This document shows positions 18,424 through 59,546 of a DNA stretch of 64,000 nucleotides, one piece after another. This DNA is from Escherichia coli (GTDB lineage Bacteria; Pseudomonadota; Gammaproteobacteria; Enterobacterales; Enterobacteriaceae). The translations under genes and the position numbers were made by a program. Position 1 is the stretch's first letter. Every line of letters starts with the position of its first letter. The notes below the pieces were generated by a model that searched no databases, was not told where the DNA came from, and saw only the letters and a list, made by a program, of their open reading frames with translations. Location of the stretch: the NCBI RefSeq assembly GCF_022846255.1, contig NZ_AP025682.1. One strand, given 5' to 3'.

Positions 18424-18424
18424 T

Positions 18425-28792: not shown

Positions 28793-28823
28793 GATCACGA
28801 TAAATCTTGGAAGGGTTGCAAAA

Positions 28824-30062: not shown

Positions 30063-30071
30063 GGAATAGTT

Positions 30072-31199: not shown

Positions 31200-31213
31200 T
31201 TTAAGCTAAAAAT

Positions 31214-32278: not shown

Positions 32279-32329
32279 ATTTTTTACATATATAAAATTA
32301 TGTAAGCATATCGCTGGTCAGGTAATTGT

Positions 32330-34295: not shown

Positions 34296-34304
34296 TGTAT
34301 CCTT

Positions 34305-35369: not shown

Positions 35370-35473
35370 CTCTGTTAAACTTCAAATCTTTTACAATATA
35401 TGGCATGACTATAAGCGCATTAATTGTTTTTCAAGCCGCTCTCGCGGTGACCACCCCCTGACAGGAGTAAACA

Positions 35474-36880
35474 ATGTCAAAGCAACAGATCGGCGTCGTC
35501 GGTATGGCAGTGATGGGGCGCAACCTTGCGCTCAACATCGAAAGCCGTGGTTATACCGTCTCTATTTTCAACCGTTCCCGTGAAAAGACGGAAGAAGTGA
35601 TTGCCGAAAATCCAGGCAAGAAACTGGTTCCTTACTATACGGTGAAAGAGTTTGTTGAATCTCTGGAAACGCCTCGTCGCATCCTGTTAATGGTGAAAGC
35701 AGGTGCAGGCACGGATGCTGCTATTGATTCCCTCAAACCATATCTCGATAAAGGTGACATCATCATTGATGGTGGCAATACCTTCTTCCAGGACACCATT
35801 CGTCGTAACCGTGAACTTTCTGCCGAAGGCTTTAACTTCATTGGTACCGGTGTCTCCGGTGGTGAAGAAGGCGCGCTGAAAGGTCCTTCTATTATGCCTG
35901 GTGGGCAGAAAGAAGCCTATGAACTGGTTGCACCAATCCTGACCAAAATCGCCGCAGTAGCTGAAGACGGGGAGCCATGCGTTACCTATATTGGTGCCGA
36001 TGGCGCAGGCCATTATGTGAAGATGGTTCACAACGGTATTGAATACGGCGATATGCAGCTGATTGCTGAAGCCTATTCTCTGCTTAAAGGTGGCTTGAAC
36101 CTTTCCAACGAAGAACTGGCGCAGACCTTTACCGAGTGGAATAACGGTGAACTGAGCAGCTACCTGATTGACATCACTAAAGACATCTTCACTAAAAAAG
36201 ATGAAGACGGTAACTACCTGGTTGATGTGATTCTGGATGAAGCGGCTAACAAAGGTACCGGTAAATGGACCAGCCAGAGCGCGCTGGATCTCGGTGAACC
36301 GCTGTCGCTGATTACCGAGTCTGTGTTTGCACGTTATATCTCTTCTCTGAAAGATCAGCGTGTTGCCGCATCTAAAGTTCTCTCTGGCCCGCAAGCGCAG
36401 CCAGCAGGCGATAAAGATGAGTTCATCGAAAAAGTTCGCCGTGCACTGTATCTGGGCAAAATCGTTTCTTACGCTCAGGGCTTCTCTCAACTGCGTGCGG
36501 CGTCTGAAGAGTACAACTGGGATCTGGACTACGGCGAAATCGCGAAGATTTTCCGTGCTGGCTGCATCATCCGTGCGCAGTTCCTGCAGAAAATCACCGA
36601 TGCTTATGCCGAAAATCCGCAGATCGCTAACCTGCTGCTGGCTCCGTACTTCAAGCAAATCGCCGATGACTACCAGCAGGCGCTGCGCGATGTCGTCGCT
36701 TACGCGGTACAGAACGGTATCCCGGTTCCGACCTTCGCCGCTGCGGTTGCCTATTATGACAGCTACCGCGCCGCTGTTCTGCCTGCGAACCTGATCCAGG
36801 CACAGCGTGACTATTTCGGTGCGCATACTTATAAGCGCATTGATAAAGAAGGTGTGTTCCATACCGAATGGCTGGATTAA
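35474..36880 (+). CDS. gnd: 6-phosphogluconate dehydrogenase (decarboxylating)
   Basis: 468 aa; [21 protein letters not shown]ossmann N-terminus; conserved position between the O-antigen cluster and ugd. Confidence 0.97.
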
Positions 36881-36906
36881 TCTGATTTAATCAACAATAA
36901 AATTGA

Positions 36907-36937
36907 GGCCCGGCGTATATTATGCCGGGTTTTTTTT
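36907..36937 (+). terminator. Rho-independent terminator after gnd
   Basis: ggcccggcgtatattatgccggg hairpin followed by an 8-T tract. Confidence 0.8.
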
Positions 36938-37118
36938 ACCAATTATCTTATAGACTAAATTTCACTGCTTAATATTAACTTAATAAATATCAGCTATTCT
37001 TATAAAGAAATTCTGAATTGTTTTTCGTTGCGTTGACCATCTTACAACGTAGCGTTAAAACTTTTAACTCTTATCAGGATGCTAAAAACATCATGATTCA
37101 CAGTTAAGTTAATTCTGA

Positions 37119-38294
<1,176 letters not shown>

Positions 38295-38303
38295 CATCCT
38301 GTT

Positions 38304-38336
38304 ATCAGGGCTATTTACGCCCTGATTGTCTTTTGT
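38304..38336 (+). terminator. Rho-independent terminator after ugd
   Basis: atcagggctatttacgccctgat hairpin followed by a T-rich run. Confidence 0.7.
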
Positions 38337-38439
38337 TACTTGCGTAACAATTCATTATTTTTATCAATTATCCTATAGCATTCATGAGGATTATCGCTAA
38401 ACTATGCGGACTTGGAAATTTCCGTCAGTTAGGGTAATG

Positions 38440-39420
38440 ATGAGAGTAGAAAATAATAATGTTTCTGGGCAAAACCATGACCCGGAACAGATTGATTTGA
38501 TTGATTTACTAGTGCAGTTGTGGCGTGGCAAGATGACAATCATCATTTCCGTCATTGTGGCTATTGCCCTGGCTATTGGATATTTGGCAGTAGCGAAGGA
38601 GAAATGGACGTCAACAGCAATTATCACTCAGCCCGATGTGGGGCAAATTGCTGGCTATAACAATGCCATGAATGTTATCTATGGTCAGGCTGCACCGAAA
38701 GTATCGGATTTGCAGGAGACGTTAATTGGTCGCTTCAGTTCTGCCTTCTCTGCATTAGCAGAAACGCTGGATAATCAGGAAGAACCAGAAAAACTTACCA
38801 TCGAACCTTCTGTTAAGAACCAGCAATTACCATTGACTGTTTCTTATGTTGGGCAAACTGCAGAGGGCGCACAAATGAAGTTGGCCCAATACATTCAGCA
38901 AGTTGACGATAAAGTGAATCAAGAGTTAGAAAAGGATCTCAAGGACAACATTGCTCTGGGACGGAAAAACTTGCAGGACTCTTTAAGAACGCAGGAAGTG
39001 GTTGCGCAGGAGCAGAAAGATCTGCGTATCCGTCAGATTCAGGAAGCGTTGCAGTATGCGAATCAGGCGCAGGTGACAAAACCGCAGATTCAACAGACTG
39101 GCGAAGATATCACACAAGATACGTTGTTCCTTTTGGGGAGCGAAGCGCTGGAGTCGATGATTAAGCATGAGGCGACCCGTCCGTTGGTGTTCTCACCAAA
39201 CTACTATCAGACTCGTCAAAACCTGCTTGATATCGAAAGCTTAAAGGTTGATGATCTTGATATTCATGCTTACCGCTATGTAATGAAACCGACGTTACCT
39301 ATTCGTCGTGATAGCCCGAAAAAGGCAATTACCTTGATTCTGGCGGTGCTGCTGGGTGGCATGGTTGGCGCGGGGATTGTGCTGGGGCGTAATGCTCTAC
39401 GCAATTACAACGCGAAGTAA
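38440..39420 (+). CDS. wzzB: O-antigen chain-length determinant (PCP-1)
   Basis: Start taken at the ATG at 38440 (MRVENNNVSGQ...), giving 326 aa; N- and C-terminal transmembrane helices flanking a coiled-coil periplasmic domain. Confidence 0.9.
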   Translation: MRVENNNVSGQNHDPEQIDLIDLLVQLWRGKMTIIISVIVAIALAIGYLAVAKEKWTSTAIITQPDVGQIAGYNNAMNVIYGQAAPKVSDLQETLIGRFSSAFSALAETLDNQEEPEKLTIEPSVKNQQLPLTVSYVGQTAEGAQMKLAQYIQQVDDKVNQELEKDLKDNIALGRKNLQDSLRTQEVVAQEQKDLRIRQIQEALQYANQAQVTKPQIQQTGEDITQDTLFLLGSEALESMIKHEATRPLVFSPNYYQTRQNLLDIESLKVDDLDIHAYRYVMKPTLPIRRDSPKKAITLILAVLLGGMVGAGIVLGRNALRNYNAK

Positions 39421-39436
39421 TCTTTTCGGTTTTAAA

Positions 39437-39475
39437 GAAAAAGGGCAGGGTGGTGACACCTTGCCCGTTTTTTTG
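39437..39475. terminator. Bidirectional rho-independent terminator between wzzB and the his operon
   Basis: A-tract, then gggcagggtggtgacaccttgccc hairpin, then T-tract; followed by a REP-like palindrome ccggatgcggcaacaatatcgcatccg. Confidence 0.75.
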
Positions 39476-39515
39476 CCGGATGCGGCAACAATATCGCATC
39501 CGCTTACCCCGCAAC

Positions 39516-40120
39516 TCACTGATGCCGTTTACGCAGGTTCTCAATTACCGTCGTTAAATCCAGCCCCTGATCCTGCAACAACACCAGCAGGTGATACATC
39601 AAATCAGATGCCTCGTTGGTCAGCTCAAAGCGGTCATGTACCGTCGCGGCCAGCGCGGTTTCCACGCCTTCTTCGCCTACTTTCTGCGCAATGCGTTTGG
39701 TGCCGCTGGCATACAGTTTGGCAGTGTAGGAGGTTTCCGGGTCGGCAGATTTACGTTCGGCGAGCAGTTGTTCCAGTTGATACAGGAACAGCCACTGGTG
39801 AGCGGTGTCGCCGAAGCAGCTGCTGGTGCCTTTGTGGCAGGTTGGCCCGATGGGATTCGCCAGCACCAGTAACGTGTCGTTGTCGCAGTCCGGGGCAATA
39901 CTCACTACGTTGAGGAAATTGCCCGACGTTTCGCCTTTGGTCCACAGTCGCTGTTTAGTGCGCGAGAAGAAGGTGACTTTGCCGCTTTCGAGGGTTTTGT
40001 CTAAGGCTTCCGGGTTCATATAGCCCAGCATTAGCACTTCGCCGGATACCGCGTGTTGCACAATCACCGGCATAAGTCCGTCGGTTTTTTCCCAGTCCAG
40101 TTCGCGACGTTGTTGTTCTG

Positions 40121-40127
<7 letters not shown>
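39516..40127 (-). CDS. hisI: Bifunctional phosphoribosyl-AMP cyclohydrolase / phosphoribosyl-ATP pyrophosphatase
   Basis: 203 aa; last gene of the his operon. Confidence 0.95.
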
Positions 40128-42205
<2,078 letters not shown>

Positions 42206-42206
<1 letters not shown>

Positions 42207-43272
42207 TACAGCACTCCTTTTGACGAGGGCAGGGTGTCGCCTTCCACGCGGATGGCCTGGCGCAGGGTGCGACCAAAGGCTTTGAACAGGCTCTCTACAC
42301 GGTGATGATCGTTTTTACCTTTGGTTTTCAGGTGTAGCGTCACGCCCATAGTGTAAGAGAGCGAACGGAAGAAGTGCTCGATCATTTCAGTGCTGAGATC
42401 GCCCACGCGCTGGTAGGTAAATTCGGCTTTATATTCCAGGTGCGGGCGACCAGAGATATCCAGCGCGCAGCGGGCAAGGCATTCGTCCATCGGCAGCACA
42501 AAACCAAAGCGACAAATACCGCGTTTATCGCCGAGGGCAATTTTTAACGCTTCGCCCAGCGCCAGGCCGGTATCTTCGACGGTGTGGTGATCGTCGATAT
42601 AGAGGTCGCCTTTGACGTTGATTTCCATGCGGAAACCGCCGTGGGTGGCGATCTGATCCAGCATGTGATCAAAGAAGCCAACGCCGGTGTTAATCTTGCT
42701 GCCACCTTCACGATCCAGCCACACCTGGACGTCAATTTGCGTCTCTTTGGTGTTGCGCACTACGTGGGCGTAACGGTCTCGTTTAGTGAGTTGCTCGCCA
42801 ATCATCGGCCAGTTCAGGGTTTCGCGGTCGTAGCGTAAACCATTAATACCCATGTTTTCCGCCAGTTGAATATCGGTCGCGCGATCGCCAATCACATAAC
42901 TGTTGGCACGATCCATCGCTTGCTCAGCGAGATAACGCTCCACCAGTTTTACTTTCGGTTTACGGCAGTCGCACTCATCTGCGGGCAGGTGCGGACAAAT
43001 CAGCACTTCATCAAACTGCACGCCTTGCGAGGTGAAGATCTGCATCATCAGGTTGTGCGGTCCATCAAAATCCGCCTGCGGGAAACTTTGTGTTCCCAGA
43101 CCATCCTGATTAGTGATCATCACCAGTTTGTAGCCCGCTTTTTGCAGCTTCAGCAGTTCCGGGATCACGCCCGGTTCAAAGGCGAGTTTGTCAAAACGGT
43201 CCACCTGAAAATCACTCGGCGGTTCGCTAATCAGGGTTCCATCGCGATCGATAAAAAGATACTTCTGACTCA

Positions 43273-43273
<1 letters not shown>
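42206..43273 (-). CDS. hisB: Bifunctional histidinol-phosphatase / imidazoleglycerol-phosphate dehydratase
   Basis: 355 aa from [14 protein letters not shown] (HAD motif); start overlaps the hisC stop. Confidence 0.95.
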
Positions 43274-45644
<2,371 letters not shown>

Positions 45645-45649
45645 GGCGA

Positions 45650-46549
45650 TCACTCCATCATCTTCTCAATCGGCAGGACCAGGATTGAACTGGCACCCAG
45701 CGCTTTCAGTTTTTCCATGGTTTCCCAGAACAGGGTTTCGCTGCTGACCATGTGCATCGCTACGCGCTGTTGATCACCCGCCAGCGGCAGAATAGTTGGG
45801 CGTTCGGCACCTGGCAGCAGGGCGATGACTTCATCCAGACGTTCGGTCGGTGCGTGCATCATGATGTATTTTGATTCGCGCGCCTGGATCACACCCTGAA
45901 TACGGGTCAGCAGTTTGTCGATCAGTTGCTGTTTGGATTCTTCCATTTCGCCATCGCGTTGGATCAGGCAAGCTTTCGAGCGGTAGATAACTTCGACTTC
46001 GCGCAGGCCGTTTGCTTCCAGCGTGGCACCGGTGGAAACCAGATCGCAAATCGCATCCGCCAGTCCGGCACGCGGGGCGACTTCAACAGAACCGTTCAGT
46101 AAGCAGGATTTAAAAGAGATGCCTTTCTGGTCGAGATAACGCTTGAGCAGGTGAGGATAAGAGGTGGCGATACGTTTACCGTTTAAGGAGAGCGGGCCGT
46201 CCCAGGCTTCATCAACCGGCGTTGCCAGTGAAAGTCGGCAGCCGCCAAAATCCAGACGACGCAGGGTAAAGTAGCGCGGATCTTCACCCTGGGCGCGGCG
46301 GTTAAGCAGCTCTTCTTCCAGCACGTTTTCGCCGATAATCCCAAGGTCTACCACGCCATCCATTACCAGACCGGGAATGTCGTCGTCACGCACGCGCAGA
46401 ATATCAATCGGCATGTTTTCTGCCATCGCGATCAGGCGCTGGGTGTGAAGATTGATTTTAATGCCACAGCGCGCCAGCAATTCGCGTGAATCATCACTTA
46501 AACGGCCGGATTTCTGCATAGCTATGCGTAAACGAGTGTTGTCTGTCAT
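45650..46549 (-). CDS. hisG: ATP phosphoribosyltransferase
   Basis: 299 aa from [17 protein letters not shown]...; the track ORF's 13-codon upstream extension lies in the attenuator region. Confidence 0.95.
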
Positions 46550-46585
46550 TTTGTTATTCCTCTTTAAACCTGTCTGAACCGTTAT

Positions 46586-46626
46586 CAACCGCGCAATAAA
46601 AAAGCCCCCGGAAGGTGATCTTCCGG
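46586..46626 (-). terminator. his attenuator (rho-independent terminator hairpin)
   Basis: Minus-strand gagaaagcccccggaagatcaccttccgggggcttttttat between hisL and hisG. Confidence 0.9.
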
Positions 46627-46694
46627 GGGCTTTCTCATGCGTTCATGCACCACTGGAAGATCTGAATGTCTTCCAGCACACATCGCCTGAAAGA

Positions 46695-46745
46695 CTAGTC
46701 AGGATGATGGTGATGATGGTGGTGTTTAAATTGAACGCGTGTCAT
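46695..46745 (-). CDS. hisL: his operon leader peptide
   Basis: Minus-strand atgacacgcgttcaatttaaacaccaccatcatcaccatcatcctgactag encodes MTRVQFKHHHHHHHPD with 7 consecutive His codons; too short for the ORF track. Confidence 0.95.
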   Translation of the reverse strand: MTRVQFKHHHHHHHPD

Positions 46746-46783
46746 AAAAGTCTCTGTGAATGTTTATTCAACTGATGTCTTTT

Positions 46784-46813
46784 AACCTAAACCACTTTCA
46801 CGTTAGAAAGCAA
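46784..46813 (-). promoter_or_regulatory. Putative his promoter (-35 TTGCTT, -10 TAGGTT on the minus strand)
   Basis: Hexamers with about 18-bp spacing, roughly 40-70 bp upstream of hisL; AT-rich UP-like tract further upstream. Confidence 0.6.
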
Positions 46814-46967
46814 GGGCTTTTTTATATATTTTATGGCAATGGATTTGTTTAATGAATGAGCGGGGAAAGGAGGGGGCCTGGAGTGACTACGTTAGAAAAG
46901 AAATCGTGAAAATATGTCTTTAAAACCCTCAAGAACATTGTGTTCTGTAACTAAAGTGGGCTTTGTT

Positions 46968-47072
46968 CCTGCCGGATGCGGCGTGAATGCCTTATCTGGT
47001 CTACAAATGTTGCGTAAATTCAATATATTGATGTTTTTGTAGGACTGATAAGCGGAGCGCATCAGGCAATGG
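46968..47072. repeat. Two REP elements in the hisL-yeeZ spacer
   Basis: gccggatgcggcgtgaatgccttatctgg and gtaggactgataagcggagcgcatcaggc palindromic REP-type motifs. Confidence 0.65.
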
Positions 47073-47171
47073 TATATTTGCTAACCGTTTCGATTTCATT
47101 CATAGAATGAATTGTCAGTTTTGATACGCTAGCGTAGCCTTATAGATCTTAGGTGTATCAGGAGATAACGG

Positions 47172-47996
47172 ATGAAAAAGGTCGCAATTGTCGGGTTAGG
47201 GTGGTTAGGCATGCCGCTGGCGATGTCACTTTCAGCGCGAGGCTGGCAAGTCACCGGGAGTAAAACCACACAAGATGGTGTCGAAGCGGCCCGAATGAGT
47301 GGCATTGATAGCTATCTGCTTCGCATGGAGCCTGAGTTAGTTTGCGATTCTGACGATCTGGATGCCCTGATGGATGCCGATGCGCTGGTCATTACGCTTC
47401 CGGCACGTCGTAGCGGCCCCGGCGATGAGTTCTATTTACAAGCGGTACAAGAGTTAGTGGATAGCGCGCTGGCTCATCGTATTCCCCGCATTATTTTCAC
47501 CAGCTCAACGTCTGTCTATGGCGACGCGCAAGGCACGGTGAAAGAAACTACCCCGCGTAATCCGGTAACCAACAGTGGAAGAGTATTAGAAGAACTCGAA
47601 GACTGGCTGCACAATTTACCCGGTACTTCGGTCGATATTCTGCGTCTTGCGGGCCTTGTCGGACCGGGACGTCATCCCGGACGCTTCTTTGCCGGAAAAA
47701 CCGCGCCTGATGGTGAACATGGTGTTAATTTAGTCCATTTAGAAGATGTTATTGGCGCTATCACTCTGTTGTTACAGGCACCTAAAGGCGGACACATCTA
47801 TAATATATGTGCGCCAGCTCACCCTGCGCGTAATGTTTTCTATCCGCAGATGGCCCGTTTACTGGGGCTGGAACCTCCGCAGTTCAGAAATAGTCTGGAC
47901 AGCGGCAAAGGTAAGATTATTGATGGCAGTCGGATTTGTAATGAACTGGGGTTTGAATACCAGTATCCCGATCCGCTGGTAATGCCGCTGGAGTAA
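47172..47996 (+). CDS. yeeZ: NAD(P)-binding epimerase/dehydratase-like protein
   Basis: 274 aa; MKKVAIVGLGWLGMPLA Rossmann N-terminus; AGGAG RBS upstream. Confidence 0.85.
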   Translation: MKKVAIVGLGWLGMPLAMSLSARGWQVTGSKTTQDGVEAARMSGIDSYLLRMEPELVCDSDDLDALMDADALVITLPARRSGPGDEFYLQAVQELVDSALAHRIPRIIFTSSTSVYGDAQGTVKETTPRNPVTNSGRVLEELEDWLHNLPGTSVDILRLAGLVGPGRHPGRFFAGKTAPDGEHGVNLVHLEDVIGAITLLLQAPKGGHIYNICAPAHPARNVFYPQMARLLGLEPPQFRNSLDSGKGKIIDGSRICNELGFEYQYPDPLVMPLE

Positions 47997-48041
47997 ACGA
48001 TCACGCCAGCAGGACGCCGCATGCACTGCAAGGGGGCGTGT

Positions 48042-48971
48042 ATGAAACCACTGCTGGATGTGTTGATGATCCTCGATGCCTTAGAAAAAGAAGGCAGTTT
48101 TGCGGCGGCGTCGGCCAAACTCTACAAGACGCCGTCCGCTCTGAGTTACACCGTTCACAAGCTGGAAAGCGACCTTAATATTCAATTGCTTGATCGTAGC
48201 GGTCACCGCGCTAAATTCACCCGCACCGGAAAAATGTTATTAGAGAAAGGGCGGGAAGTTCTGCATACCGTGCGGGAACTGGAAAAGCAGGCGATCAAAC
48301 TGCATGAAGGCTGGGAAAACGAGCTGGTGATTGGCGTGGACGACACGTTTCCTTTTTCTCTGCTTGCGCCACTGATTGAAGCTTTTTATCAACATCATAG
48401 CGTGACGCGCCTGAAGTTTATCAATGGCGTACTCGGTGGTTCCTGGGATGCCCTGACTCAGGGGCGAGCGGATATTATTGTTGGCGCGATGCATGAGCCA
48501 CCATCTTCCAGTGAATTTGGTTTCTCGCGGTTGGGCGATCTGGAACAAGTCTTTGCGGTCGCGCCTCATCATCCGTTAGCCCAGGAAGAAGAGCCGTTAA
48601 ACCGTCGTATCATTAAGCGATATCGGGCGATTGTGGTGGGGGACACTGCGCAGGCAGGCGCTTCTACGGCCTCACAACTTCTCGACGAACAAGAAGCCAT
48701 TACCGTTTTCGATTTTAAAACCAAGCTGGAGCTGCAAATTAGCGGCCTCGGCTGCGGCTATTTACCCCGTTATCTGGCGCAACGTTTTCTCGATAGTGGC
48801 GCGTTAATCGAGAAGAAAGTGGTCGCCCAAACTCTCTTTGAACCCGTCTGGATTGGCTGGAATGAACAGACCGCAGGGCTTGCCAGCGGCTGGTGGCGGG
48901 ATGAAATTTTAGCAAATAGTGCGATCGCCGGTGTTTATGCAAAATCTGATGACGGAAAATCAGCCATTTAA
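48042..48971 (+). CDS. yeeY: LysR-family transcriptional regulator
   Basis: Start taken at the ATG at 48042 (MKPLLDVLMILDALEKEGSFAAASAKLYKTPSALSYTVHKLE, an HTH), giving 309 aa. Confidence 0.85.
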   Translation: MKPLLDVLMILDALEKEGSFAAASAKLYKTPSALSYTVHKLESDLNIQLLDRSGHRAKFTRTGKMLLEKGREVLHTVRELEKQAIKLHEGWENELVIGVDDTFPFSLLAPLIEAFYQHHSVTRLKFINGVLGGSWDALTQGRADIIVGAMHEPPSSSEFGFSRLGDLEQVFAVAPHHPLAQEEEPLNRRIIKRYRAIVVGDTAQAGASTASQLLDEQEAITVFDFKTKLELQISGLGCGYLPRYLAQRFLDSGALIEKKVVAQTLFEPVWIGWNEQTAGLASGWWRDEILANSAIAGVYAKSDDGKSAI

Positions 48972-49237
48972 AGAAAAATTATTATGACAAGCCTCTCATT
49001 CTCTTGTCATTTCCCCCCCATTTAGGCACAATGCGCCGCTGTCAAAAAATGACTAAAAACCGACGTTTCATCAGCGTCGGTTATTTTTTGCTTCAAACCA
49101 ATCATTCATACCAAGAGGCCGGGCTTCGTACCGGATAGATATTTACTAAAAATCGACAGTTGTTGTCGCTGAGGAATCCAAAAAAATGGGGCAATTTTTT
49201 GCTTACGCGACGGTTATCACCGTAAAGGAGAATGACC

Positions 49238-50596
49238 ATGTCGCATAACGTTACTCCAAACACCTCTCGCGTGGAATTGCGTAAAACGCTTACGTTAGTT
49301 CCGGTTGTAATGATGGGTCTTGCCTATATGCAGCCGATGACGCTGTTTGATACTTTTGGTATCGTTTCAGGCCTCACGGATGGTCATGTGCCGACAGCCT
49401 ATGCGTTCGCATTGATTGCGATCCTGTTTACGGCTCTGAGCTACGGGAAGCTGGTCCGCCGCTATCCTTCTGCTGGCTCTGCATACACTTACGCCCAGAA
49501 ATCCATTAGCCCGACTGTCGGCTTTATGGTGGGTTGGTCTTCTCTGCTCGACTATCTGTTCGCGCCGATGATCAACATTCTGCTGGCGAAAATCTATTTT
49601 GAAGCTCTGGTGCCTTCCATTCCATCGTGGATGTTTGTGGTGGCGCTGGTGGCCTTTATGACCGCCTTTAACCTGCGTAGTCTGAAATCCGTAGCGAACT
49701 TCAACACTGTAATCGTCGTGTTGCAGGTAGTGCTGATCGCGGTGATCCTGGGCATGGTTGTTTATGGCGTATTTGAAGGTGAAGGAGCGGGTACGCTGGC
49801 GAGCACTCGTCCGTTCTGGTCTGGCGATGCGCATGTTATCCCGATGATTACCGGGGCGACAATCCTGTGCTTCTCCTTTACCGGCTTTGACGGCATCAGC
49901 AACCTGTCGGAAGAAACCAAAGATGCAGAGCGCGTGATCCCGCGTGCGATTTTCCTGACCGCGCTGATTGGCGGCATGATCTTCATCTTTGCAACTTACT
50001 TCCTGCAGCTGTACTTCCCGGATATCTCTCGCTTTAAAGATCCGGATGCGTCACAGCCTGAAATCATGCTGTACGTTGCGGGTAAAGCGTTCCAGGTTGG
50101 CGCGCTGATCTTCTCCACCATTACCGTACTGGCGTCCGGTATGGCGGCGCACGCAGGCGTTGCGCGTCTGATGTACGTAATGGGTCGTGACGGCGTGTTC
50201 CCGAAAAGCTTCTTCGGTTATGTACACCCGAAATGGCGTACTCCGGCGATGAATATCATCCTGGTTGGCGCGATTGCCCTGCTGGCAATCAACTTTGACC
50301 TGGTAATGGCAACGGCGCTGATTAACTTTGGTGCGTTGGTGGCGTTCACCTTCGTTAACCTGTCGGTCATCTCGCAGTTCTGGATCCGTGAGAAGCGTAA
50401 CAAGACGCTGAAAGATCACTTCCAGTATCTGTTCCTGCCGATGTGTGGTGCGCTGACCGTTGGTGCGCTGTGGGTTAACCTGGAAGAAAGCTCAATGGTT
50501 CTGGGTCTGATCTGGGCTGCTATCGGTCTGATTTACCTGGCATGCGTAACCAAGAGCTTCCGTAACCCGGTTCCGCAGTACGAAGACGTAGCATAA
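49238..50596 (+). CDS. plaP: Putrescine importer (APC family amino acid/polyamine permease)
   Basis: 452 aa from [16 protein letters not shown]...; 12 predicted transmembrane helices. Confidence 0.85.
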
Positions 50597-50614
50597 TCAT
50601 CTTTTCTAATAATC

Positions 50615-50652
50615 AACCGGAGTCGAATGAATATTTGGCTCCGGTTTTTTTA
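50615..50652 (+). terminator. Rho-independent terminator after plaP
   Basis: ccggagtcgaatgaatatttggctccgg hairpin followed by a 7-T tract. Confidence 0.8.
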
Positions 50653-50774
50653 TTCTTTTTTATCGAAATCCTCATTAATAACCATTTGTTCTAATTTAGA
50701 GAATTTGGTTATTGGTCTGCATTCCACCAGTCATGAATAATTTCCTTATTAACATTCATCTGGTTAATTAATTT

Positions 50775-51833
50775 ATGTTTTCAATGATATTAAGCGGGCT
50801 AATTTGTGGTGCTCTGCTGGGATTTGTCATGCAGCGTGGGCGTTTTTGCCTGACAGGTGGTTTTCGCGATATGTATGTCGCGAAAAATAATCGCATGTTT
50901 TACGCCTTGCTGATTGCAATTTCGGTACAAAGCGTGGGGGTTTTTGCGTTAATTCAGGCGGGCCTACTGACTTACGAAGCCGGGGCGTTCCCGTGGCTTG
51001 GTACTGTTATAGGTGGGTATCTTTTCGGGCTGGGAATTGTTCTGGCGGGTGGATGTGCCACCGGGACCTGGTATCGCGCGGGTGAGGGATTGATCGGCAG
51101 TTGGATCGCGCTTTTCACTTATATGGTGATGAGTGCGGTGATGCGTTCTCCACACGCCAGTGGTTTAAATCAAACCTTGCAGCACTACACTACTGAACAT
51201 AACTCTATTGCTGATACTTTTAATTTGTCTGTGTGGCCGTTGGTTGCCGTTTTGCTGGTGATAACGCTCTGGGTGGTGATGAAAGAGTTGAAGAAGCCAA
51301 AACTCAAAGTCGCGACCTTACCGCCGCGCCGAACCGGGATCGCTCATATTCTGTTTGAAAAACGCTGGCATCCCTTTGTCACAGCTGTACTCATCGGTTT
51401 GATTGCGCTTTTAGCCTGGCCCCTGAGTGAAGCAACCGGACGTATGTTTGGGTTAGGCATCACTTCCCCAACGGCCAATATTCTGCAATTTCTGGTCGCG
51501 GGTGACGTGAAATACATTAACTGGGGCGTTTTCCTGGTGTTAGGGAGCTTCGTGGGGTCATTTATTGCCGCCAAAGCGAGCCGTGAGTTCCGCGTTCGCG
51601 CTGCTGATGCACAAACAACATTACGTAGCGGGTTAGGTGGTGTACTGATGGGCTTCGGTGCCAGCATTGCAGGTGGTTGCTCTATCGGTAATGGACTGGT
51701 CATGACTGCAATGATGACCTGGCAGGGCTGGATTGGCCTTGTATTTATGATTCTCGGAGTCTGGACTGCGTCCTGGCTTGTGTATGTTCGACCGCAGCGT
51801 AAGGCGCGACTGGCAACTGCTGCGGCAAATTAA
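50775..51833 (+). CDS. yeeE: YeeE/YedE-family inner membrane transporter (thiosulfate uptake)
   Basis: 352 aa; internally duplicated membrane protein with conserved Cys motifs (GRFCLTGG, GGCSIGNG). Confidence 0.85.
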   Translation: MFSMILSGLICGALLGFVMQRGRFCLTGGFRDMYVAKNNRMFYALLIAISVQSVGVFALIQAGLLTYEAGAFPWLGTVIGGYLFGLGIVLAGGCATGTWYRAGEGLIGSWIALFTYMVMSAVMRSPHASGLNQTLQHYTTEHNSIADTFNLSVWPLVAVLLVITLWVVMKELKKPKLKVATLPPRRTGIAHILFEKRWHPFVTAVLIGLIALLAWPLSEATGRMFGLGITSPTANILQFLVAGDVKYINWGVFLVLGSFVGSFIAAKASREFRVRAADAQTTLRSGLGGVLMGFGASIAGGCSIGNGLVMTAMMTWQGWIGLVFMILGVWTASWLVYVRPQRKARLATAAAN

Positions 51834-51846
51834 GTAAGGTGTAAAG

Positions 51847-52074
51847 ATGGCGATTAAAAAGCTGGATGTGGTGACGCAGGTCTGTCCGTTTCCACTCATA
51901 GAAGCAAAAGCAGCACTGGCAGAAATGGCCAGCGGCGATGAGTTGGTAATTGAGTTTGATTGCACCCAGGCAACTGAAGCAATCCCACAGTGGGCGGCAG
52001 AAGAAGGACATGCCATCACCGATTATCAGCAGATTGGCGATGCAGCGTGGAGCATCACCGTTCAAAAAGCCTGA
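51847..52074 (+). CDS. yeeD: TusA-like sulfurtransferase
   Basis: 75 aa; CPFPLIEAK (CPxP) motif; adjacent to yeeE. Confidence 0.88.
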   Translation: MAIKKLDVVTQVCPFPLIEAKAALAEMASGDELVIEFDCTQATEAIPQWAAEEGHAITDYQQIGDAAWSITVQKA

Positions 52075-52083
52075 CTCAAAATT

Positions 52084-52112
52084 GTCCTCCGCCGTACCAG
52101 CGGCGGAGGCTT
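52084..52112. terminator. Bidirectional terminator between convergent yeeD and sbcB
   Basis: cctccgccgtaccagcggcggagg perfect hairpin. Confidence 0.7.
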
Positions 52113-52116
52113 CACA

Positions 52117-53544
52117 TTAGACAATCTCTTCCGCGTACTGCCAAAGCGCTTTTAACAGCGCCACTTTTTCTTTATCGTCGGCATACAGCTGCGCCAGCAT
52201 CTGAATCTCTTCTGCATAGCCTTGTAAAAACTCGGGTGTGAAGACCTGGCGGCGGTGCTCAAGCCAGCGTTGCTGCTCGTTGTCATCTAACGTGCCGGGG
52301 AAGTTGCGGGCGCGGTAGTTGAACAGGAGTTTCTCGATACGCTTATCAACAAAGGTGATATCCAGAGCCGGTAAATTACGCGGTTCAGTCTCCAGCACGA
52401 TTTTCATTGCTGCACGATCGGCGTCGCTAAAAAAGCCATTATAAAGCTGTGCATCTACATTATCTGATGGTGTAAACGGTTCAGCTTCTGCAAAAATTGC
52501 CACAACTTTGTCGCGTACTTGCGGGTTTTCGCGCAACACTTTCAGGTTATCCAGGCAGTGTTGACGAGCAATCCCTAAACGCTCAGCGTCTTCCGGGCGT
52601 AGCGTATTCGCCTGGGCCAGTACCGGACATTTATTGATATGCACCAGCTTAACCGGAACGGCGGCGTTATCGCCAAGATCGGCTTTTGCGGTATATAAAC
52701 GCTCGCGCAATGTGTCGCTATCCAGCTCCAGTAATGGTGAAATGTCTCCTGCCAAATCCACCATAATTACGGCATTGCGATTTTCAGGATGCCACGCCAG
52801 CGGTGCCACCCAGCTGGTATTGCCACGCCATGCCCCAAACATTCCGGAAACGTGAACCAGGGGTTTCATCTGCGGAACATCAATCAACGCCATCAGTTTG
52901 TGTTTATTACGATGGGTAAAGAGATAATCAAACAGGCGTGGCTGACGCGTTTTTACCAGTTTCGCCATCGCAATAGTGGCGTACACATCAGCCATCGCAT
53001 CGTGGGCGTTGCTATGTTCAATACCATTCGCTTTGGTTAAATGCTCAAGGCGAAAGCTCGGTAGACCGTCATCATTTTCAGGCCAGTTTATTCCTTCCGG
53101 GCGCAGGGCATAACAGGCACGCATAACATCCAGTAAATCCCAGCGCGAGTTATCATGCTGCCAGCTCCAGGCGTAAGGATCGTAGAAATTACGATAAAAA
53201 ACGTTGCGTGTGACTTCATCGTCGAAACGCACATTGTTGTAGCCCAGAATACAGGTCTTCGGTACGGTAAAAAGCGAGTGAATACGGGCGGCAAACGCGG
53301 CTTCGTTTTCTCCTTTCGCCCGTGCTTCCTGCGGGGTAATACCGGTAATTAATACTGCTCCAGGCTGGGGTAAATAGTCATCCGCGGGCTTGCAGTAAAA
53401 GACTTCGGGTTCGCCGATGACATTGAATTCGTTATCAGTGCGAATGGCTGCGAACTGTGCAGGGCGATCTAACGCGGGGTGCGTTCCAAAGGTTTCGTAA
53501 TCGTGAAACAAAAAGGTAGATTGTTGCTTACCGTCATTCATCAT
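52117..53544 (-). CDS. sbcB: Exodeoxyribonuclease I
   Basis: 475 aa from MMNDGKQQSTFLFHDYETFGTHPALDRPAQFAAIRTD... (DnaQ-like exonuclease motif). Confidence 0.95.
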   Translation of the reverse strand: MMNDGKQQSTFLFHDYETFGTHPALDRPAQFAAIRTDNEFNVIGEPEVFYCKPADDYLPQPGAVLITGITPQEARAKGENEAAFAARIHSLFTVPKTCILGYNNVRFDDEVTRNVFYRNFYDPYAWSWQHDNSRWDLLDVMRACYALRPEGINWPENDDGLPSFRLEHLTKANGIEHSNAHDAMADVYATIAMAKLVKTRQPRLFDYLFTHRNKHKLMALIDVPQMKPLVHVSGMFGAWRGNTSWVAPLAWHPENRNAVIMVDLAGDISPLLELDSDTLRERLYTAKADLGDNAAVPVKLVHINKCPVLAQANTLRPEDAERLGIARQHCLDNLKVLRENPQVRDKVVAIFAEAEPFTPSDNVDAQLYNGFFSDADRAAMKIVLETEPRNLPALDITFVDKRIEKLLFNYRARNFPGTLDDNEQQRWLEHRRQVFTPEFLQGYAEEIQMLAQLYADDKEKVALLKALWQYAEEIV

Positions 53545-53752
53545 TAGGTTAAATCCGTTATTTCTGCTGTCTGCCAGAGTATCAAATATCACCGTGCTAA
53601 TCAGCTTTAGCGCGACAATTTGGCAGCGAGTGGCAACAGATCATGTCAGATAAAAATGAGATAGTAGTCACATTTTCTTGCACTTTATTCCAGCCAGTTC
53701 ATAAGTATTTCCGTAAAAAGAACAGCTATTTGAAACACCTGAGGGTTTGCTG

Positions 53753-54919
53753 TTGAAACGCCGTCTTATTATTGCTGCTTCTTTGTTCGTTTTTAATTTA
53801 TCGTCTGGTTTTGCGGCGGAAAACATTCCTTTTTCACCTCAGCCTCCAGAGATTCATGCCGGGTCCTGGGTATTGATGGATTACACCACCGGTCAGATTC
53901 TCACCGCGGGTAATGAGCATCAACAGCGCAATCCCGCCAGCCTGACAAAGCTGATGACGGGCTATGTCGTGGATCGTGCTATCGATAGTCATCGCATTAC
54001 GCCAGACGATATTGTCACCGTGGGGCGTGATGCGTGGGCGAAAGATAATCCGGTGTTTGTCGGTTCTTCACTGATGTTTTTGAAAGAGGGCGATCGCGTA
54101 TCGGTACGTGATTTAAGCCGTGGTTTAATTGTGGATTCCGGAAATGACGCTTGTGTTGCACTGGCTGACTATATTGCCGGTGGGCAACGGCAGTTTGTTG
54201 AAATGATGAACAACTATGCCGAGAAGCTGCATCTCAAGGATACGCATTTTGAAACAGTGCATGGTCTGGATGCACCTGGCCAGCATAGCTCGGCTTATGA
54301 TTTAGCTGTGCTTTCTCGCGCTATCATCCACGGCGAGCCCGAGTTTTATCATATGTACAGTGAGAAAAGCCTCACCTGGAACGGTATCACCCAGCAAAAC
54401 CGTAACGGGTTATTGTGGGATAAAACCATGAATGTTGACGGCCTGAAAACGGGTCATACTTCTGGTGCCGGGTTTAATCTCATTGCTTCGGCTGTAGATG
54501 GGCAGCGTCGTCTCATTGCAGTGGTAATGGGGGCTGACAGCGCAAAAGGTCGTGAGGAAGAGGCAAGAAAATTACTGCGTTGGGGTCAACAAAACTTTAC
54601 TACGGTGCAAATTTTGCACCGTGGGAAAAAGGTTGGTACGGAACGCATCTGGTATGGCGATAAAGAAAATATCGCCCTGGGAACGGAACAAGAGTTCTGG
54701 ATGGTGCTACCGAAAGCCGAAATTCCACATATCAAAGCCAAATATACCCTTGATGGTAAAGAACTCACCGCGCCAATTAGCGCCCATCAGCGGGTAGGGG
54801 AAATTGAACTTTACGACCGTGATAAACAGGTGGCGCACTGGCCGCTGGTTACCCTGGAATCTGTCGGGGAAGGCAGCATGTTTTCCCGGCTGAGTGATTA
54901 TTTCCACCATAAGGCCTGA
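53753..54919 (+). CDS. dacD: D-alanyl-D-alanine carboxypeptidase (PBP6b)
   Basis: 388 aa with a TTG start; SxxK (ASLTK), SGN and KTG motifs; signal peptide. Confidence 0.9.
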   Translation: MKRRLIIAASLFVFNLSSGFAAENIPFSPQPPEIHAGSWVLMDYTTGQILTAGNEHQQRNPASLTKLMTGYVVDRAIDSHRITPDDIVTVGRDAWAKDNPVFVGSSLMFLKEGDRVSVRDLSRGLIVDSGNDACVALADYIAGGQRQFVEMMNNYAEKLHLKDTHFETVHGLDAPGQHSSAYDLAVLSRAIIHGEPEFYHMYSEKSLTWNGITQQNRNGLLWDKTMNVDGLKTGHTSGAGFNLIASAVDGQRRLIAVVMGADSAKGREEEARKLLRWGQQNFTTVQILHRGKKVGTERIWYGDKENIALGTEQEFWMVLPKAEIPHIKAKYTLDGKELTAPISAHQRVGEIELYDRDKQVAHWPLVTLESVGEGSMFSRLSDYFHHKA

Positions 54920-55003
54920 CCTTTCTTTTGCAGCAGACTGGCAGGAGTGCGAGTCTGCTCGCATAATCAACACTCATTCCTTGTGGTTTTAATATTGCAA
55001 CTA

Positions 55004-55023
55004 TACTGTATATAAAAACAGTA
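55004..55023 (+). promoter_or_regulatory. LexA (SOS) box upstream of sbmC
   Basis: tactgtatataaaaacagta matches the CTGT-N8-ACAG SOS-box consensus, 15 bp upstream of the sbmC ATG. Confidence 0.85.
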
Positions 55024-55037
55024 TTAATGGGGGCGTC

Positions 55038-55511
55038 ATGAACTACGAGATTAAGCAGGAAGATAAACGTACCGTTGCAGGTTTCCATCTCGTTGGCCCG
55101 TGGGAACAGACGGTAAAGAAAGGCTTTGAGCAGTTGATGATGTGGATAGATAGCAAAAATATTGTGCCGAAGGAGTGGGTTGCTGTCTATTACGACAATC
55201 CAGATGAAACACCCGCCGAAAAATTACGCTGCGACACCGTCGTGACGGTGCCGAATAACTTTACGCTCCCCGAAAACAGTGAGGGCGTCATTCTGACAGA
55301 AATTTCAGGTGGTCAGTATGCGGTGGCGGTGGCTCGTGTAGTCGGTGATGATTTTGCTAAACCCTGGTATCAGTTCTTTAATAGCCTCTTGCAGGACAGT
55401 GCCTATGAAATGTTACCAAAGCCCTGCTTCGAGGTTTACTTGAACAATGGCGCGGAAGATGGGTACTGGGATATCGAAATGTATGTTGCGGTGCAGCCAA
55501 AACATCACTAA
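55038..55511 (+). CDS. sbmC: DNA gyrase inhibitor (GyrI-like)
   Basis: 157 aa; [24 protein letters not shown]... Confidence 0.93.
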
Positions 55512-55708
55512 TTCATCTCAGGGCGGTGTGTTGACGCGAAGACCACTCTTTTTTTGAAAGCGAAAAGAGTAAGATGCGCCTTTCAAATTTTTCGCTCCTG
55601 CCGGGAAATTACACTGTTCCCGGTATGTCCGTCGGATAACTCAGAGGCGCGCCTTCTGGCCGACAGATGTGTTATGAGCGCTTTTAATCTTCATTACGGA
55701 GTTTCTGC

Positions 55709-56767
55709 GTGCGTGCCGATAAGTCATTAAGCCCGTTTGAAATCCGGGTATACCGCCATTACCGCATTGTGCATGGTACTCGGGTCGCGCTGGCATTCCT
55801 GCTCACTTTTCTCATTATCCGCCTGTTTACTATCCCGGAAAGCACCTGGCCGCTGGTCACCATGGTGGTGATTATGGGGCCAATCTCGTTCTGGGGGAAC
55901 GTTGTCCCTCGTGCCTTCGAACGTATTGGCGGTACGGTGTTGGGTTCGATTTTAGGTCTTATCGCTCTGCAACTGGAGTTAATTTCGTTACCGCTGATGT
56001 TAGTCTGGTGCGCGGCGGCGATGTTTCTTTGCGGTTGGCTGGCGCTGGGCAAGAAACCGTATCAAGGATTATTGATTGGGGTGACGCTGGCAATTGTTGT
56101 GGGTTCCCCGACAGGTGAAATTGATACGGCGTTATGGCGAAGCGGCGATGTGATCCTCGGCTCTTTACTGGCAATGTTGTTTACCGGTATCTGGCCACAA
56201 CGGGCGTTCATCCACTGGCGCATTCAACTGGCGAAAAGTCTGACCGAGTATAATCGGGTCTATCAATCTGCATTCTCACCGAACTTACTCGAACGCCCAC
56301 GTCTGGAAAGCCATCTACAAAAACTGCTGACCGATGCCGTGAAAATGCGTGGGCTGATTGCGCCCGCCAGCAAAGAAACCCGTATTCCAAAATCGATATA
56401 TGAAGGTATCCAGACCATTAACCGCAATCTGGTTTGTATGCTGGAGTTGCAAATCAATGCATACTGGGCCACGCGCCCCAGCCATTTCGTGTTATTGAAC
56501 GCGCAAAAACTTCGTGATACCCAGCACATGATGCAGCAAATACTGCTGAGCCTTGTTCATGCGCTGTACGAAGGTAATCCGCAGCCGGTTTTTGCCAATA
56601 CGGAAAAATTGAACGATGCTGTGGAAGAGCTGCGTCTGTTGCTTAATAACCACCATGACCTGAAGGTTGTGGAAACACCAATCTATGGTTATGTGTGGCT
56701 GAACATGGAAACGGCGCATCAGCTTGAGTTGCTATCGAATCTGATTTGCCGGGCCTTGCGCAAATAA
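55709..56767 (+). CDS. yeeA: FUSC-like inner membrane protein
   Basis: 352 aa with a GTG start; several transmembrane segments. Confidence 0.85.
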   Translation: MRADKSLSPFEIRVYRHYRIVHGTRVALAFLLTFLIIRLFTIPESTWPLVTMVVIMGPISFWGNVVPRAFERIGGTVLGSILGLIALQLELISLPLMLVWCAAAMFLCGWLALGKKPYQGLLIGVTLAIVVGSPTGEIDTALWRSGDVILGSLLAMLFTGIWPQRAFIHWRIQLAKSLTEYNRVYQSAFSPNLLERPRLESHLQKLLTDAVKMRGLIAPASKETRIPKSIYEGIQTINRNLVCMLELQINAYWATRPSHFVLLNAQKLRDTQHMMQQILLSLVHALYEGNPQPVFANTEKLNDAVEELRLLLNNHHDLKVVETPIYGYVWLNMETAHQLELLSNLICRALRK

Positions 56768-56938
56768 TTCCTGAACTTCAGAATCATCTTGCTGCTGCTT
56801 CGATTCAGCAAGGATAAAGGGTATGATAGTGAAAAGGGATAAAAGCATTGTCATCTGCGGCAGCTATGAGTAATGTTGGCCCTATCGAATAGCGGTTGCT
56901 TAAACGAATCCGACTCTCACATTATCAGGGGTATAAAA

Positions 56939-57268
56939 ATGGAAACTACCAAGCCTTCATTCCAGGACGTACTGGAATTTGTTCGTCTGTTCCGTCGTAA
57001 GAACAAACTGCAACGTGAAATTCAGGACGTTGAGAAAAAGATCCGTGACAACCAGAAGCGCGTCCTGTTGCTGGACAACCTGAGCGATTACATCAAGCCA
57101 GGGATGAGCGTTGAAGCAATCCAGGGCATCATCGCCAGCATGAAAGGTGACTATGAAGATCGCGTTGACGATTACATCATCAAAAATGCCGAGCTCTCCA
57201 AAGAACGCCGCGATATCTCCAAAAAGCTGAAAGCTATGGGCGAAATGAAAAACGGCGAAGCGAAGTAA
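56939..57268 (+). CDS. yeeX: DUF496-family protein
   Basis: 109 aa from [18 protein letters not shown]...; the track ORF carries an N-terminal extension. Confidence 0.85.
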
Positions 57269-57282
57269 TTCCTGTTTTATTC

Positions 57283-57310
57283 AATGAGGGTTGCCCGGCA
57301 ACCCTCATTG
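57283..57310 (+). terminator. Hairpin terminator after yeeX
   Basis: caatgagggttgcccggcaaccctcattg perfect inverted repeat. Confidence 0.7.
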
Positions 57311-57368
57311 CTCATTGATTCTTATCTGTGTATCACCGTCATCATTCTCATCTGAGAACCTATCGAAA

Positions 57369-57590
57369 TTAGCGGCAGCCTTCTTCTGTATGCAGCAAGG
57401 CAAAAAGTTCTGTAACTCCATTGTTATTAACCGCACTGGTTACTAACACGTTGTGCGCTCCAGCTTCCCGTAACCAACATTTCACCAAAGATATTTGTTC
57501 CATGCTGGCTAAATCTGCTTTGGTTACTACTCCAATGACCGGGTGATTCATGGCCCGGTAGGGCGTTTTTACCTCTAATTCCTGCTTCAG
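57369..57590 (-). pseudogene. yoeF: C-terminal fragment of a PduV/EutP-family GTPase gene (yoeF-like remnant)
   Basis: Minus-strand translation ...PVIGVVTKADLASMEQISLVKCWLREAGAHNVLVTSAVNNNGVTELFALL carries the G4 motif TKAD but the N-terminal P-loop half is missing; the 5' side is replaced by IS66-type sequence. Confidence 0.6.
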
Positions 57591-57599
57591 CGCTGAGAT

Positions 57600-57781
57600 T
57601 CCTGCTTGTTGCCGGAAAAGCAGGCACCTGCCGTCTGAACGGTATCGATCCGGAAGCGTATCTGCGCCATATTCTGAGCATACTGCCGGAATGGCCCTCC
57701 AACCGTGTTGACGAACTCCTGCCATGGAACGTAGTTCTCACCAATAAATAAGCGTCAATATGGTGCTCCGTTGACGCTTAC
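57600..57781 (+). mobile_element. 3' remnant of an IS66-family insertion sequence (transposase C-terminus plus terminal inverted repeat)
   Basis: Plus-strand frame encodes ...AGKAGTCRLNGIDPEAYLRHILSILPEWPSNRVDELLPWNVVLTNK* (stop at 57749..57751), followed by an element end ...gttgacgcttac (reverse complement GTAAGCG..., IS66-type terminus) at 57770..57781. Confidence 0.7.
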
Positions 57782-57982
57782 TTTAATCCGTTTTCTGAGC
57801 TTAGATTTTTCTGTTCCTACCCAGACCGTGGATTTGGAATTCATTTTTTGTCAGGTCAATGCTAATCGTTAAAACGGCCATAACGCACCTCCACTGGAAG
57901 GTTTATCAGTAATATCCTACCGTTGCTTCATGGTCGGGGCGTCCATTCCATTATTATCGGTTTTCCTTTCTGTTTATAAATG

Positions 57983-58010
57983 AAAACGCCAGCTGTATTC
58001 AGGCTGGCGT
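57983..58010 (-). terminator. Rho-independent terminator downstream of yeeW
   Basis: Minus strand gacgccagcctgaatacagctggcg hairpin followed by TTTTC. Confidence 0.65.
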
Positions 58011-58165
58011 CAGGGGAAATGAAGCCTGTTGAGTGAGATTCACCGGTTCTGGTGCAGAAGCTGCAGATGGCGCAGGGTAAGGACATCTTCTCTTGCCTGC
58101 TTAATACAGGACAACAGTGCTGTTTCTGTGGTTAATGGCACTATACCCTGCATCACTGCATTGTC

Positions 58166-58360
58166 TTACAGCAACTGGTGAGGGCTGGCATAAGTTGCCG
58201 GTGTTTCGGTAGAGTCACGGTCATCCACCACGCGGAGTGAATAACCGTTTTCAGCGGCCTTATTAATCAGTTCAGTGATATTAACACCATCAATGTCAAC
58301 GACAATGTGCCCCATATCCAGCGCCTGTACGTTAACGCTGTCGGCTTCCAGTGTCATCAT
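58166..58360 (-). CDS. yeeW: CP4-44-type small protein YeeW
   Basis: 64 aa (MMTLEADSVNVQALDMGH...); its ATG overlaps the stop of the cbtA reading frame. Confidence 0.75.
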   Translation of the reverse strand: MMTLEADSVNVQALDMGHIVVDIDGVNITELINKAAENGYSLRVVDDRDSTETPATYASPHQLL

Positions 58361-58730
58361 TTCGCCTCCGGATACTTACCCAGGGTAATGTTATTTACCG
58401 TTCTGTAATTGTCGCGGGTCATCAGGCCGGTCGCCCTGCGAGCCCGGAGGATATCGATGCTGTTTATTAACTGAGAGCGGGTACAGGCGCTGAATCCCGG
58501 CTGGTCGGTAGCACCAGCGCGTATTTTTCCACGAGAAAGTTCACCGCATCACACAGTGAAATGCCTGCCTCAATATGCTGCTCAATCACACGTTCATCGG
58601 CAAAAGGTGTGTCATTCTGTGTGAGGCCATAGTGCTGGTCCAGCAGTCGGGACAGCAGTATCTGCCAGATTTCAACAGGAGACGGGCGAGAACTGGCCGC
58701 CTGCCCGGGTAATACAGGTAATGTTTTCAT
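58357..58730 (-). pseudogene. cbtA: CbtA (YeeV) toxin gene, frameshifted
   Basis: The first 71 codons ([35 protein letters not shown]...LVEKYALV) are followed by a frame change near 58510..58512; the -1 frame continues [51 protein letters not shown] and ends on the TGA overlapping the yeeW ATG, while the current frame stops at 58467. Confidence 0.75.
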
Positions 58731-58818
58731 ACTGAAGATTTTCCTGATATGCAGATATAAAAATGGAAAAGTGGCGTGGTGAAAACACCAGGCCGTAGCA
58801 GAAGGCTATTCTGGAGAG

Positions 58819-59187: not shown

Positions 59188-59262
59188 GATAAAATCCTCA
59201 CAGAAAATCGGTTAAGAATGGTCCGGTAGTGGCGATAATTCTGCTCATCAGAATGCCCTGAC

Positions 59263-59484: not shown

Positions 59485-59546
59485 GATGGGATACCTCTGA
59501 AGACAGAAGATAAAAGTGAAAACAAGTGTGATGTAGTTGTGACGGG

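Follow-up and report, generated by a model that had tools for sequence, protein, structure and literature searches.

The DNA considered here is a single 64,000-nucleotide stretch of Escherichia coli, referred to throughout as the window, in which the start of the his operon lies next to yeeZ, with the two read in opposite directions (Table 1). Positions 18369..64000 of the window are collinear with strain FDAARGOS_497 at 99.6% identity, the 901-bp stretch round the hisL–yeeZ spacer is 100% identical to that strain, and the O-antigen cluster of FDAARGOS_497 is annotated with O1-family wzx and wzy. On the left-hand side of the spacer, hisL contains seven His codons in a row and adjoins an Rfam match that scores 131.6 bits (gathering score, 49; E = 6e-23), which places it among the His leaders; on the right-hand side, yeeZ is followed by yeeY. 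The spacer itself runs from 46746 to 47171 and measures 426 bp, with hisL ending at 46745 and yeeZ starting from 47172, and is thus not of the 425 bp first claimed for it. We note that a different toxin–antitoxin (TA) pair, the type IV pair cbeA/cbtA of a CP4-44-like prophage remnant, maps from FDAARGOS_497 to window positions ~58357-59187 (minus strand); cbtA is annotated as frameshifted in FDAARGOS_497, this being the annotation of a relative at 99.6% identity.

Table 1. Features in and around the hisL–yeeZ spacer, in window coordinates.
Feature	Position	Strand	Basis
hisG, ATP phosphoribosyltransferase, first structural gene of the his operon	45650..46549	-	ORF list; FDAARGOS_497 annotation of the identical stretch
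His operon leader/attenuator RNA	46596..46719	-	Rfam RF00514
hisL, leader peptide gene (MTRVQFKHHHHHHHPD)	46695..46745	-	sequence reading; mapped RefSeq annotation
Left segment common to both alleles, with the his promoter	46746..46884		K-12 and outgroup alignments
Allele-specific 210-bp segment	46885..47094		alignments to K-12
REP1 (GCCGGATGCGGCGTGAATGCCTTATCTGGTCTAC)	46971..47004	+	pattern search
Linker between the inverted REPs, 34 nt	47005..47038		sequence reading
REP2 (GCCTGATGCGCTCCGCTTATCAGTCCTAC), inverted relative to REP1	47039..47067	-	pattern search; inverted-repeat arms
Right segment common to both alleles, the yeeZ upstream region	47095..47171	+	K-12 alignment
Candidate yeeZ promoter, TTGTCA – 17 nt – TAGCCT	47112..47117 and 47135..47140	+	
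AGGAG ribosome-binding site of yeeZ	47160..47164	+	
yeeZ, SDR-family oxidoreductase	47172..47996	+	ORF; Pfam Epimerase 2.5e-12; RefSeq annotation

The original prediction was that this spacer holds no reading frame resembling YefM or YoeB, the partners of a TA module of K-12, and the TBLASTN search proposed as a check returned no match above chance in the window. With the K-12 proteins as queries against the whole window (word size 2, E up to 1000), YefM gave zero matches within 46746..47171 even at this permissive threshold, and the best match of YoeB in the spacer had E = 59; anywhere in the window, the best match of each protein had E = 0.31, which is at chance level. The same queries run on the K-12 locus gave E values of 2e-54 and 4e-56. 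Queries of the plasmid type of YefM and YoeB produced no TBLASTN match in the window either. At the level of protein domains, none of the seven open reading frames of at least 20 aa that lie in or overlap the spacer matched Pfam PhdYeFM_antitox (PF02604) or YoeB_toxin (PF06769), the controls being K-12 YefM (6e-28) and K-12 YoeB (2.8e-43). The yefM operator is a pair of TGTACA palindromes that precedes the antitoxin gene; this operator, ttgtacaatgaactgtaca, is found in K-12 and in plasmid-borne yefM–yoeB copies, and in the alignment to K-12 the operator stretch finds no counterpart anywhere in the window spacer. Neither the YoeB mRNA interferase nor the YefM antitoxin is encoded at the hisL–yeeZ locus of the window. 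The possibility that the spacer conceals a TA remnant, degraded or otherwise hidden, was considered as well, and was rejected on the strength of the permissive TBLASTN, the plasmid-type queries, the Pfam search, and the shuffle-controlled local alignments described below.

The annotation of K-12 MG1655 places yefM and yoeB precisely at the hisL–yeeZ junction, as the original prediction had it, in a spacer of 867 bp, leaving a length gap of 441 bp (867 - 426). The K-12 locus (b2017/b4539) occupies the same chromosomal junction as the window spacer, and its flanks match: the 132 bp adjoining hisL (46746..46877) are 100% identical between the two, and the 77 bp on the yeeZ side are 98.7% identical. 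Beyond the 132 bp, a further seven bases are still alignable (cctggag in the window vs ctaagag in K-12), with ctaagag also present in other genomes that carry the allele of the window. Between the shared breakpoints, the yefM–yoeB pair of K-12 sits in a segment of 651 bp, in place of which the window has 210 bp that bear a BIME and lack the TGTACA repeats of the operator as well as both genes. These two middle segments are unrelated by local alignment, scoring 20 where shuffled sequences average 18.8 ± 2.4, with 94 of 300 shuffles reaching this score. A possible homology between the 86 bp that precede REP1 and the K-12 sequence upstream of yefM was also followed up, and was judged not significant (p = 0.034 under a gap-permissive scheme, p = 0.57 under a stricter one). 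Since the window has its own 210 bp where K-12 has 651 unrelated bp, the two alleles differ by a substitution between shared breakpoints and not by a plain insertion or deletion. The notion of an accessory TA insertion that is absent here thus stands only in part: the TA module is absent, accessory, and acquired, but what separates the strains is not the simple presence or absence of an insertion, and the alignment that was meant to locate the indel boundaries did locate boundaries, but those of a substitution.

The K-12 segment can be divided into a first ~70-79 bp with no recognized source, followed by the compact yefM–yoeB module (promoter/operator and two open reading frames), with 5 bp only between the yoeB stop codon and the sequence common with the other allele. 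The left breakpoint in K-12 is spanned by a perfect palindrome, GCTAAGAGGAC-T-GTCCTCTTAGC, the left arm of which lies in DNA common to both alleles; speculatively, this palindrome may have been left behind when the two sequences were joined.

The window-specific segment, for its part, is composed of 86 bp with no recognizable feature, the BIME, and a final 27 bp. Both of the REP elements originally reported for the spacer were recovered, and both fall inside these 210 bp: the REP1-type pattern has two matches in the 64-kb window, the second at 5048..5081, and the REP2 pattern has one, with 0 matches in 100 shuffles in either case. The elements are imperfect palindromes that match the E. coli REP consensus and occur in multiple copies, and together they form a BIME, with inverted REP arms, a conserved linker motif, and a unit that recurs elsewhere. 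Specifically, other E. coli genomes carry a copy of the REP–linker–REP unit (~81% identity) between cmoB and torZ, two genes that converge; REP1 aligns to the REP1 of this cmoB–torZ BIME, the linker core AATTCAAT.TATTG is kept, and we therefore assign the window BIME to a dispersed BIME family. Partial matches at ~81% to this unit are the best match in a further 737 genomes, and both of those inspected sit between cmoB and torZ.

The linker also contains the IHF-core-like motif ATCAATATATTG (47021..47032, minus strand), which we take to fit the IHF core consensus of BIME-1/RIP elements and which would make this a putative IHF site. In its two inverted REPs and its 34-nt linker with the IHF-core-like ATCAANNNNTTG motif, the window BIME appears to resemble the BIME-1/RIP type; unlike that type, it lies between divergent promoters (those of his and yeeZ), the usual site being at gene 3' ends, such as that between cmoB and torZ, and several of its REP stem positions are mutated (GGTCTAC, GGACTGA). 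The BIME at 46971-47067 is thus unusually placed, with the closest relative found (81%) at the usual convergent-gene site. Considered as RNA, the BIME does not fold more stably than shuffled sequence (z = -0.72), an Rfam scan of the spacer returned the His leader only and no small RNA, and a promoter/terminator scan yielded inside the BIME only two promoter-like sites, which is no more than in shuffles.

The distribution of the two alleles was then surveyed in 5426 complete E. coli genomes, a sample of sequenced isolates that is heavily biased, using a 658-bp K-12-specific segment and a 217-bp window-specific segment as queries. The TA segment is present nearly full-length in 4212 of the 5426 genomes, a figure that rises to 4218 if matches of any kind are counted, and it is invariably chromosomal; the window's segment is present full-length in 1196, among them O157:H7 and BL21 derivatives (Rosetta2), and as a contiguous window-type spacer in 1193. 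The counts sum to 5414 of the 5426 genomes, and the TA and BIME alleles are therefore essentially mutually exclusive and cover nearly all genomes. Sequence identity within E. coli ranges from 96.3 to 100% for the BIME segment and from 95.4 to 100% for the TA segment. The expectation that the locus varies between strains was accordingly well founded (~4212 TA vs 1196 window-type genomes): Escherichia has two major alleles that exclude each other, the window has the one with the BIME and without the TA genes, and this is ordinary variation among strains. The same numbers bear on an assembly or sequencing artefact that dropped the TA genes from the window, for which we found no support and which we consider to have a negligible chance of being correct, as the contiguous spacer recurs, identical or nearly so, in 1193-1196 complete, independent genomes as well as in another three Escherichia species, and the same state has been published for O157 Sakai (PMC3158064).

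Two of the surveyed genomes stand apart. MEI4BO-21 (NZ_CM149565.1) has a his region with ~85% identity to the window and a spacer of 178 bp, as found in enterics other than Escherichia, and no yeeY lies between its yeeZ and plaP; its his–yeeZ segment has apparently been imported from another genus. HH97 (GCF_028201635.1; NZ_CP116409.1, 2161406-2162054) has a hisL–yeeZ spacer of 649 bp that is unique among the 5426 genomes. This spacer resembles the K-12 cassette (73-77% identity, with many small indels, the operator intact, and the open reading frames broken), and it also resembles the right half of the window BIME, even though the K-12 cassette and the BIME are unrelated. It is probable that the HH97 spacer represents a blended consensus of the two alleles; otherwise, it would be a one-off decayed TA copy. 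The appearance of this spacer as an intermediate is what favors decay in situ, in which the 210-bp segment would be an ancient yefM–yoeB module that eroded and was later colonized by REPs. We regard such a history as very improbable: the window and K-12 segments share no similarity beyond chance, TBLASTN and Pfam are negative, and HH97 is a singleton in 5426 genomes, in which small indels and base-by-base mixing are those expected of a mixed-read consensus, and the flanks of which are ~100% identical to those of the normal alleles, unlike what a 25%-diverged ancient remnant would show.

Outside E. coli, we scanned 80 loci identified with a YeeZ query, at one genome per species and with E. fergusonii not among them. 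Both genes were recovered from 74 Enterobacteriaceae outside Escherichia, including Salmonella, Citrobacter, Enterobacter, Klebsiella, Kluyvera, and Raoultella; all 74 have 350-383 bp between the start of hisG and the start of yeeZ, and all lack the TA genes as well as the BIME segment. The homology of the left segment of the window to other genera stops near 46823. From there, a piece of ~60 bp (46824-46884) with a G-rich AAAGGAGGGGG run is found in Escherichia only, in both alleles; its start lies ~10 bp upstream of the predicted his -35 hexamer, and it is absent from the 74 other Enterobacteriaceae genomes. A transposition signature around the insertion specific to Escherichia, in the form of a target-site duplication or terminal inverted repeats, was sought and rejected, as AATGAAT flanks both sides, but the right copy is homologous to the outgroups.

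Within Escherichia, the BIME allele (with ~622 bp from hisG to yeeZ) is present in E. albertii, Escherichia sp. E1V33, Escherichia sp. MOD1-EC7003, and E. coli E69, and the TA allele (1063 bp) in E. whittamii. The identity of the BIME segment to that of the window is 87.6% in E. albertii, 91.9% in MOD1-EC7003, and 96.7% in E1V33, and the E. albertii value, lying outside the range of 96.3-100% seen in E. coli, fits an allele inherited from before the two species parted. Between E. whittamii and K-12, the TA segments share 96.8% identity, a value inside the E. coli range of 95.4-100%. We are thus inclined to regard the BIME allele as having come first in Escherichia and the TA allele as the derived one, with our preference for this order kept slight by the use of one genome per species and by E. 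fergusonii not having been recovered. Recombination between Escherichia species in the hisL–yeeZ region could mimic an old BIME allele, and the two alleles may also have arisen through two independent insertions at one site.

As for where the TA module comes from, copies of yefM–yoeB with 84-86% DNA identity to K-12 are carried by plasmids, namely an IncF plasmid of Citrobacter sp. TSA-1, where the copy sits between traT and traD, pEM148 of E. marmotae, and Salmonella plasmids. The homology between plasmids and K-12 extends from ~64-75 bp upstream of yefM, with the TGTACA repeats included, exactly to the yoeB stop codon. These boundaries fit the transferable unit described for chromosomal type II TA systems, which comprises the promoter/operator and the open reading frames without a terminator (Ramisetty et al. 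2016, PMC5120126). Taking this together with the absence of the genes from the 74 non-Escherichia genomes, the presence of the same promoter-plus-TA module on plasmids points to yefM–yoeB being an acquired module.

A further aspect of the history emerges from the sequences flanking the allele-specific segment. The window is closer in its flanks to K-12, which carries the other allele (100% identity in the left shared segment, 98.4% in hisG, and 98.9% in yeeZ), than to E69, which carries the same allele (96.4%, 95.5%, and 94.7%, respectively), and both alleles are represented among laboratory strains, with TA in K-12 and BIME in BL21/Rosetta2. The middle segment is therefore decoupled from its flanks, and this pattern in the alignments shows what would be recombination breakpoints very near the allele-specific segment. 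Such decoupling is to be expected at a locus that adjoins the his/O-antigen region, where the DNA flanking the O-antigen cluster is exchanged from lineage to lineage (PMC3158064; PMC5359238).

Taking these observations into account, we consider it highly probable that an ancestral-type BIME allele, the acquisition of the TA module in its place, and recombinational spread jointly explain the state of the window. The yefM–yoeB module would have been gained from the mobile gene pool and would have taken the place of the BIME segment in some Escherichia lineage, after which both alleles would have moved between lineages by homologous recombination near the his–O-antigen hot spot.

There is a lesser, though still appreciable, chance that the absence in the window is a secondary loss at the level of the strain, its recent ancestors having had yefM–yoeB and having lost it through recombinational import of the BIME allele, for example, together with his/O-antigen DNA. 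Such a loss does not conflict with a greater overall age of the BIME allele, and it would account for flanks that are near-identical to those of the K-12 TA allele up to the breakpoints and less like those of E69; the TA allele is, in addition, the majority state in E. coli. However, the same pattern would result if the TA allele had recombined into K-12-like backgrounds. The loss of a type II TA system by replacement is, moreover, expected to be counter-selected through post-segregational toxicity, which we count against secondary loss. The published exchange of regions flanking the O-antigen cluster (PMC3158064, PMC5359238) again speaks in its favor.

A further reading, which we deem unlikely, is that the TA and BIME alleles constitute a long-lived trans-species polymorphism with fixed breakpoints, in which yefM–yoeB behaves as an addictive allele. 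What speaks for it is confined to the coexistence of the alleles across species and their shuffling onto different flanks. If it were true, replacement by the BIME allele would trigger YoeB toxicity and thus bias the exchange of alleles near the his/O-antigen hot spot, which could explain the ~78% frequency of the TA allele.

Returning to acquisition followed by recombinational spread as our preferred explanation, the substitution leaves the his side of the junction as it is in K-12. We take the his promoter to comprise a -10 hexamer at 46784..46789 and a -35 hexamer at 46808..46813, both on the minus strand, and this predicted promoter and the attenuator are unchanged in the window allele, with the 132 bp upstream of hisL identical to K-12. 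On the yeeZ side, the outgroup alignment shows that 'ttgtcag' and 'gcgtagcctta' are retained from one genus of Enterobacteriaceae to another, and we infer from this that TTGTCA-17-TAGCCT would be the yeeZ promoter; our consensus promoter scan did not list this candidate. In K-12, co-transcription of yeeZ with yefM–yoeB has been suggested in print. With no yefM promoter present in the window, yeeZ receives no read-through from it and would have to depend on its own conserved upstream region, and the suggested co-transcription is impossible in the BIME allele.

The presence/absence polymorphism of the TA module between hisL and yeeZ is already known, having been in print since 2011, when Iguchi et al. 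(PLoS One 6:e23250, PMC3158064) described O157:H7 Sakai as lacking yefM/yoeB between yeeZ and hisL. The same study notes that REP sequences occur between yeeZ and hisL and depicts indels containing REPs in this region (PMC3158064). The window and Sakai thus agree in the locus and in its TA-less, REP-bearing state, with the 217-bp segment of the window found in O157:H7 genomes at 96.3% identity, that is, at a few percent divergence. The window, however, comes from a different background, near FDAARGOS_497 (99.6%; O1-family wzx/wzy). What our analysis adds is the exact breakpoints and the nature of the change as a substitution, the counts in 5426 genomes, the states of the outgroups, and the plasmid-borne counterpart of the TA module.

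Presence or absence of a chromosomal TA module between core genes reportedly also occurs at the folA–apaH junction, where ccdO157 is said to have been described by Mine and colleagues in Genetics in 2009. As at hisL–yeeZ, a type II TA system lies there between core genes in some E. coli and a short unrelated spacer in others; unlike it, that case involves another TA family and another locus, and decaying TA copies are not seen at hisL–yeeZ apart from the doubtful HH97.

Given what is known of type II TA systems and of the his–O-antigen neighborhood, none of these findings comes as a surprise, and their significance is small. They do offer a clean example of a compact promoter-plus-TA module, shared with plasmids, that stands in place of a BIME between core genes. 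Furthermore, strains of the window type, which include O157:H7 and BL21 derivatives, are without YefM–YoeB at this locus, which is of relevance wherever the TA set of K-12 or CFT073 is assumed, as in studies of persistence, stress, and virulence.
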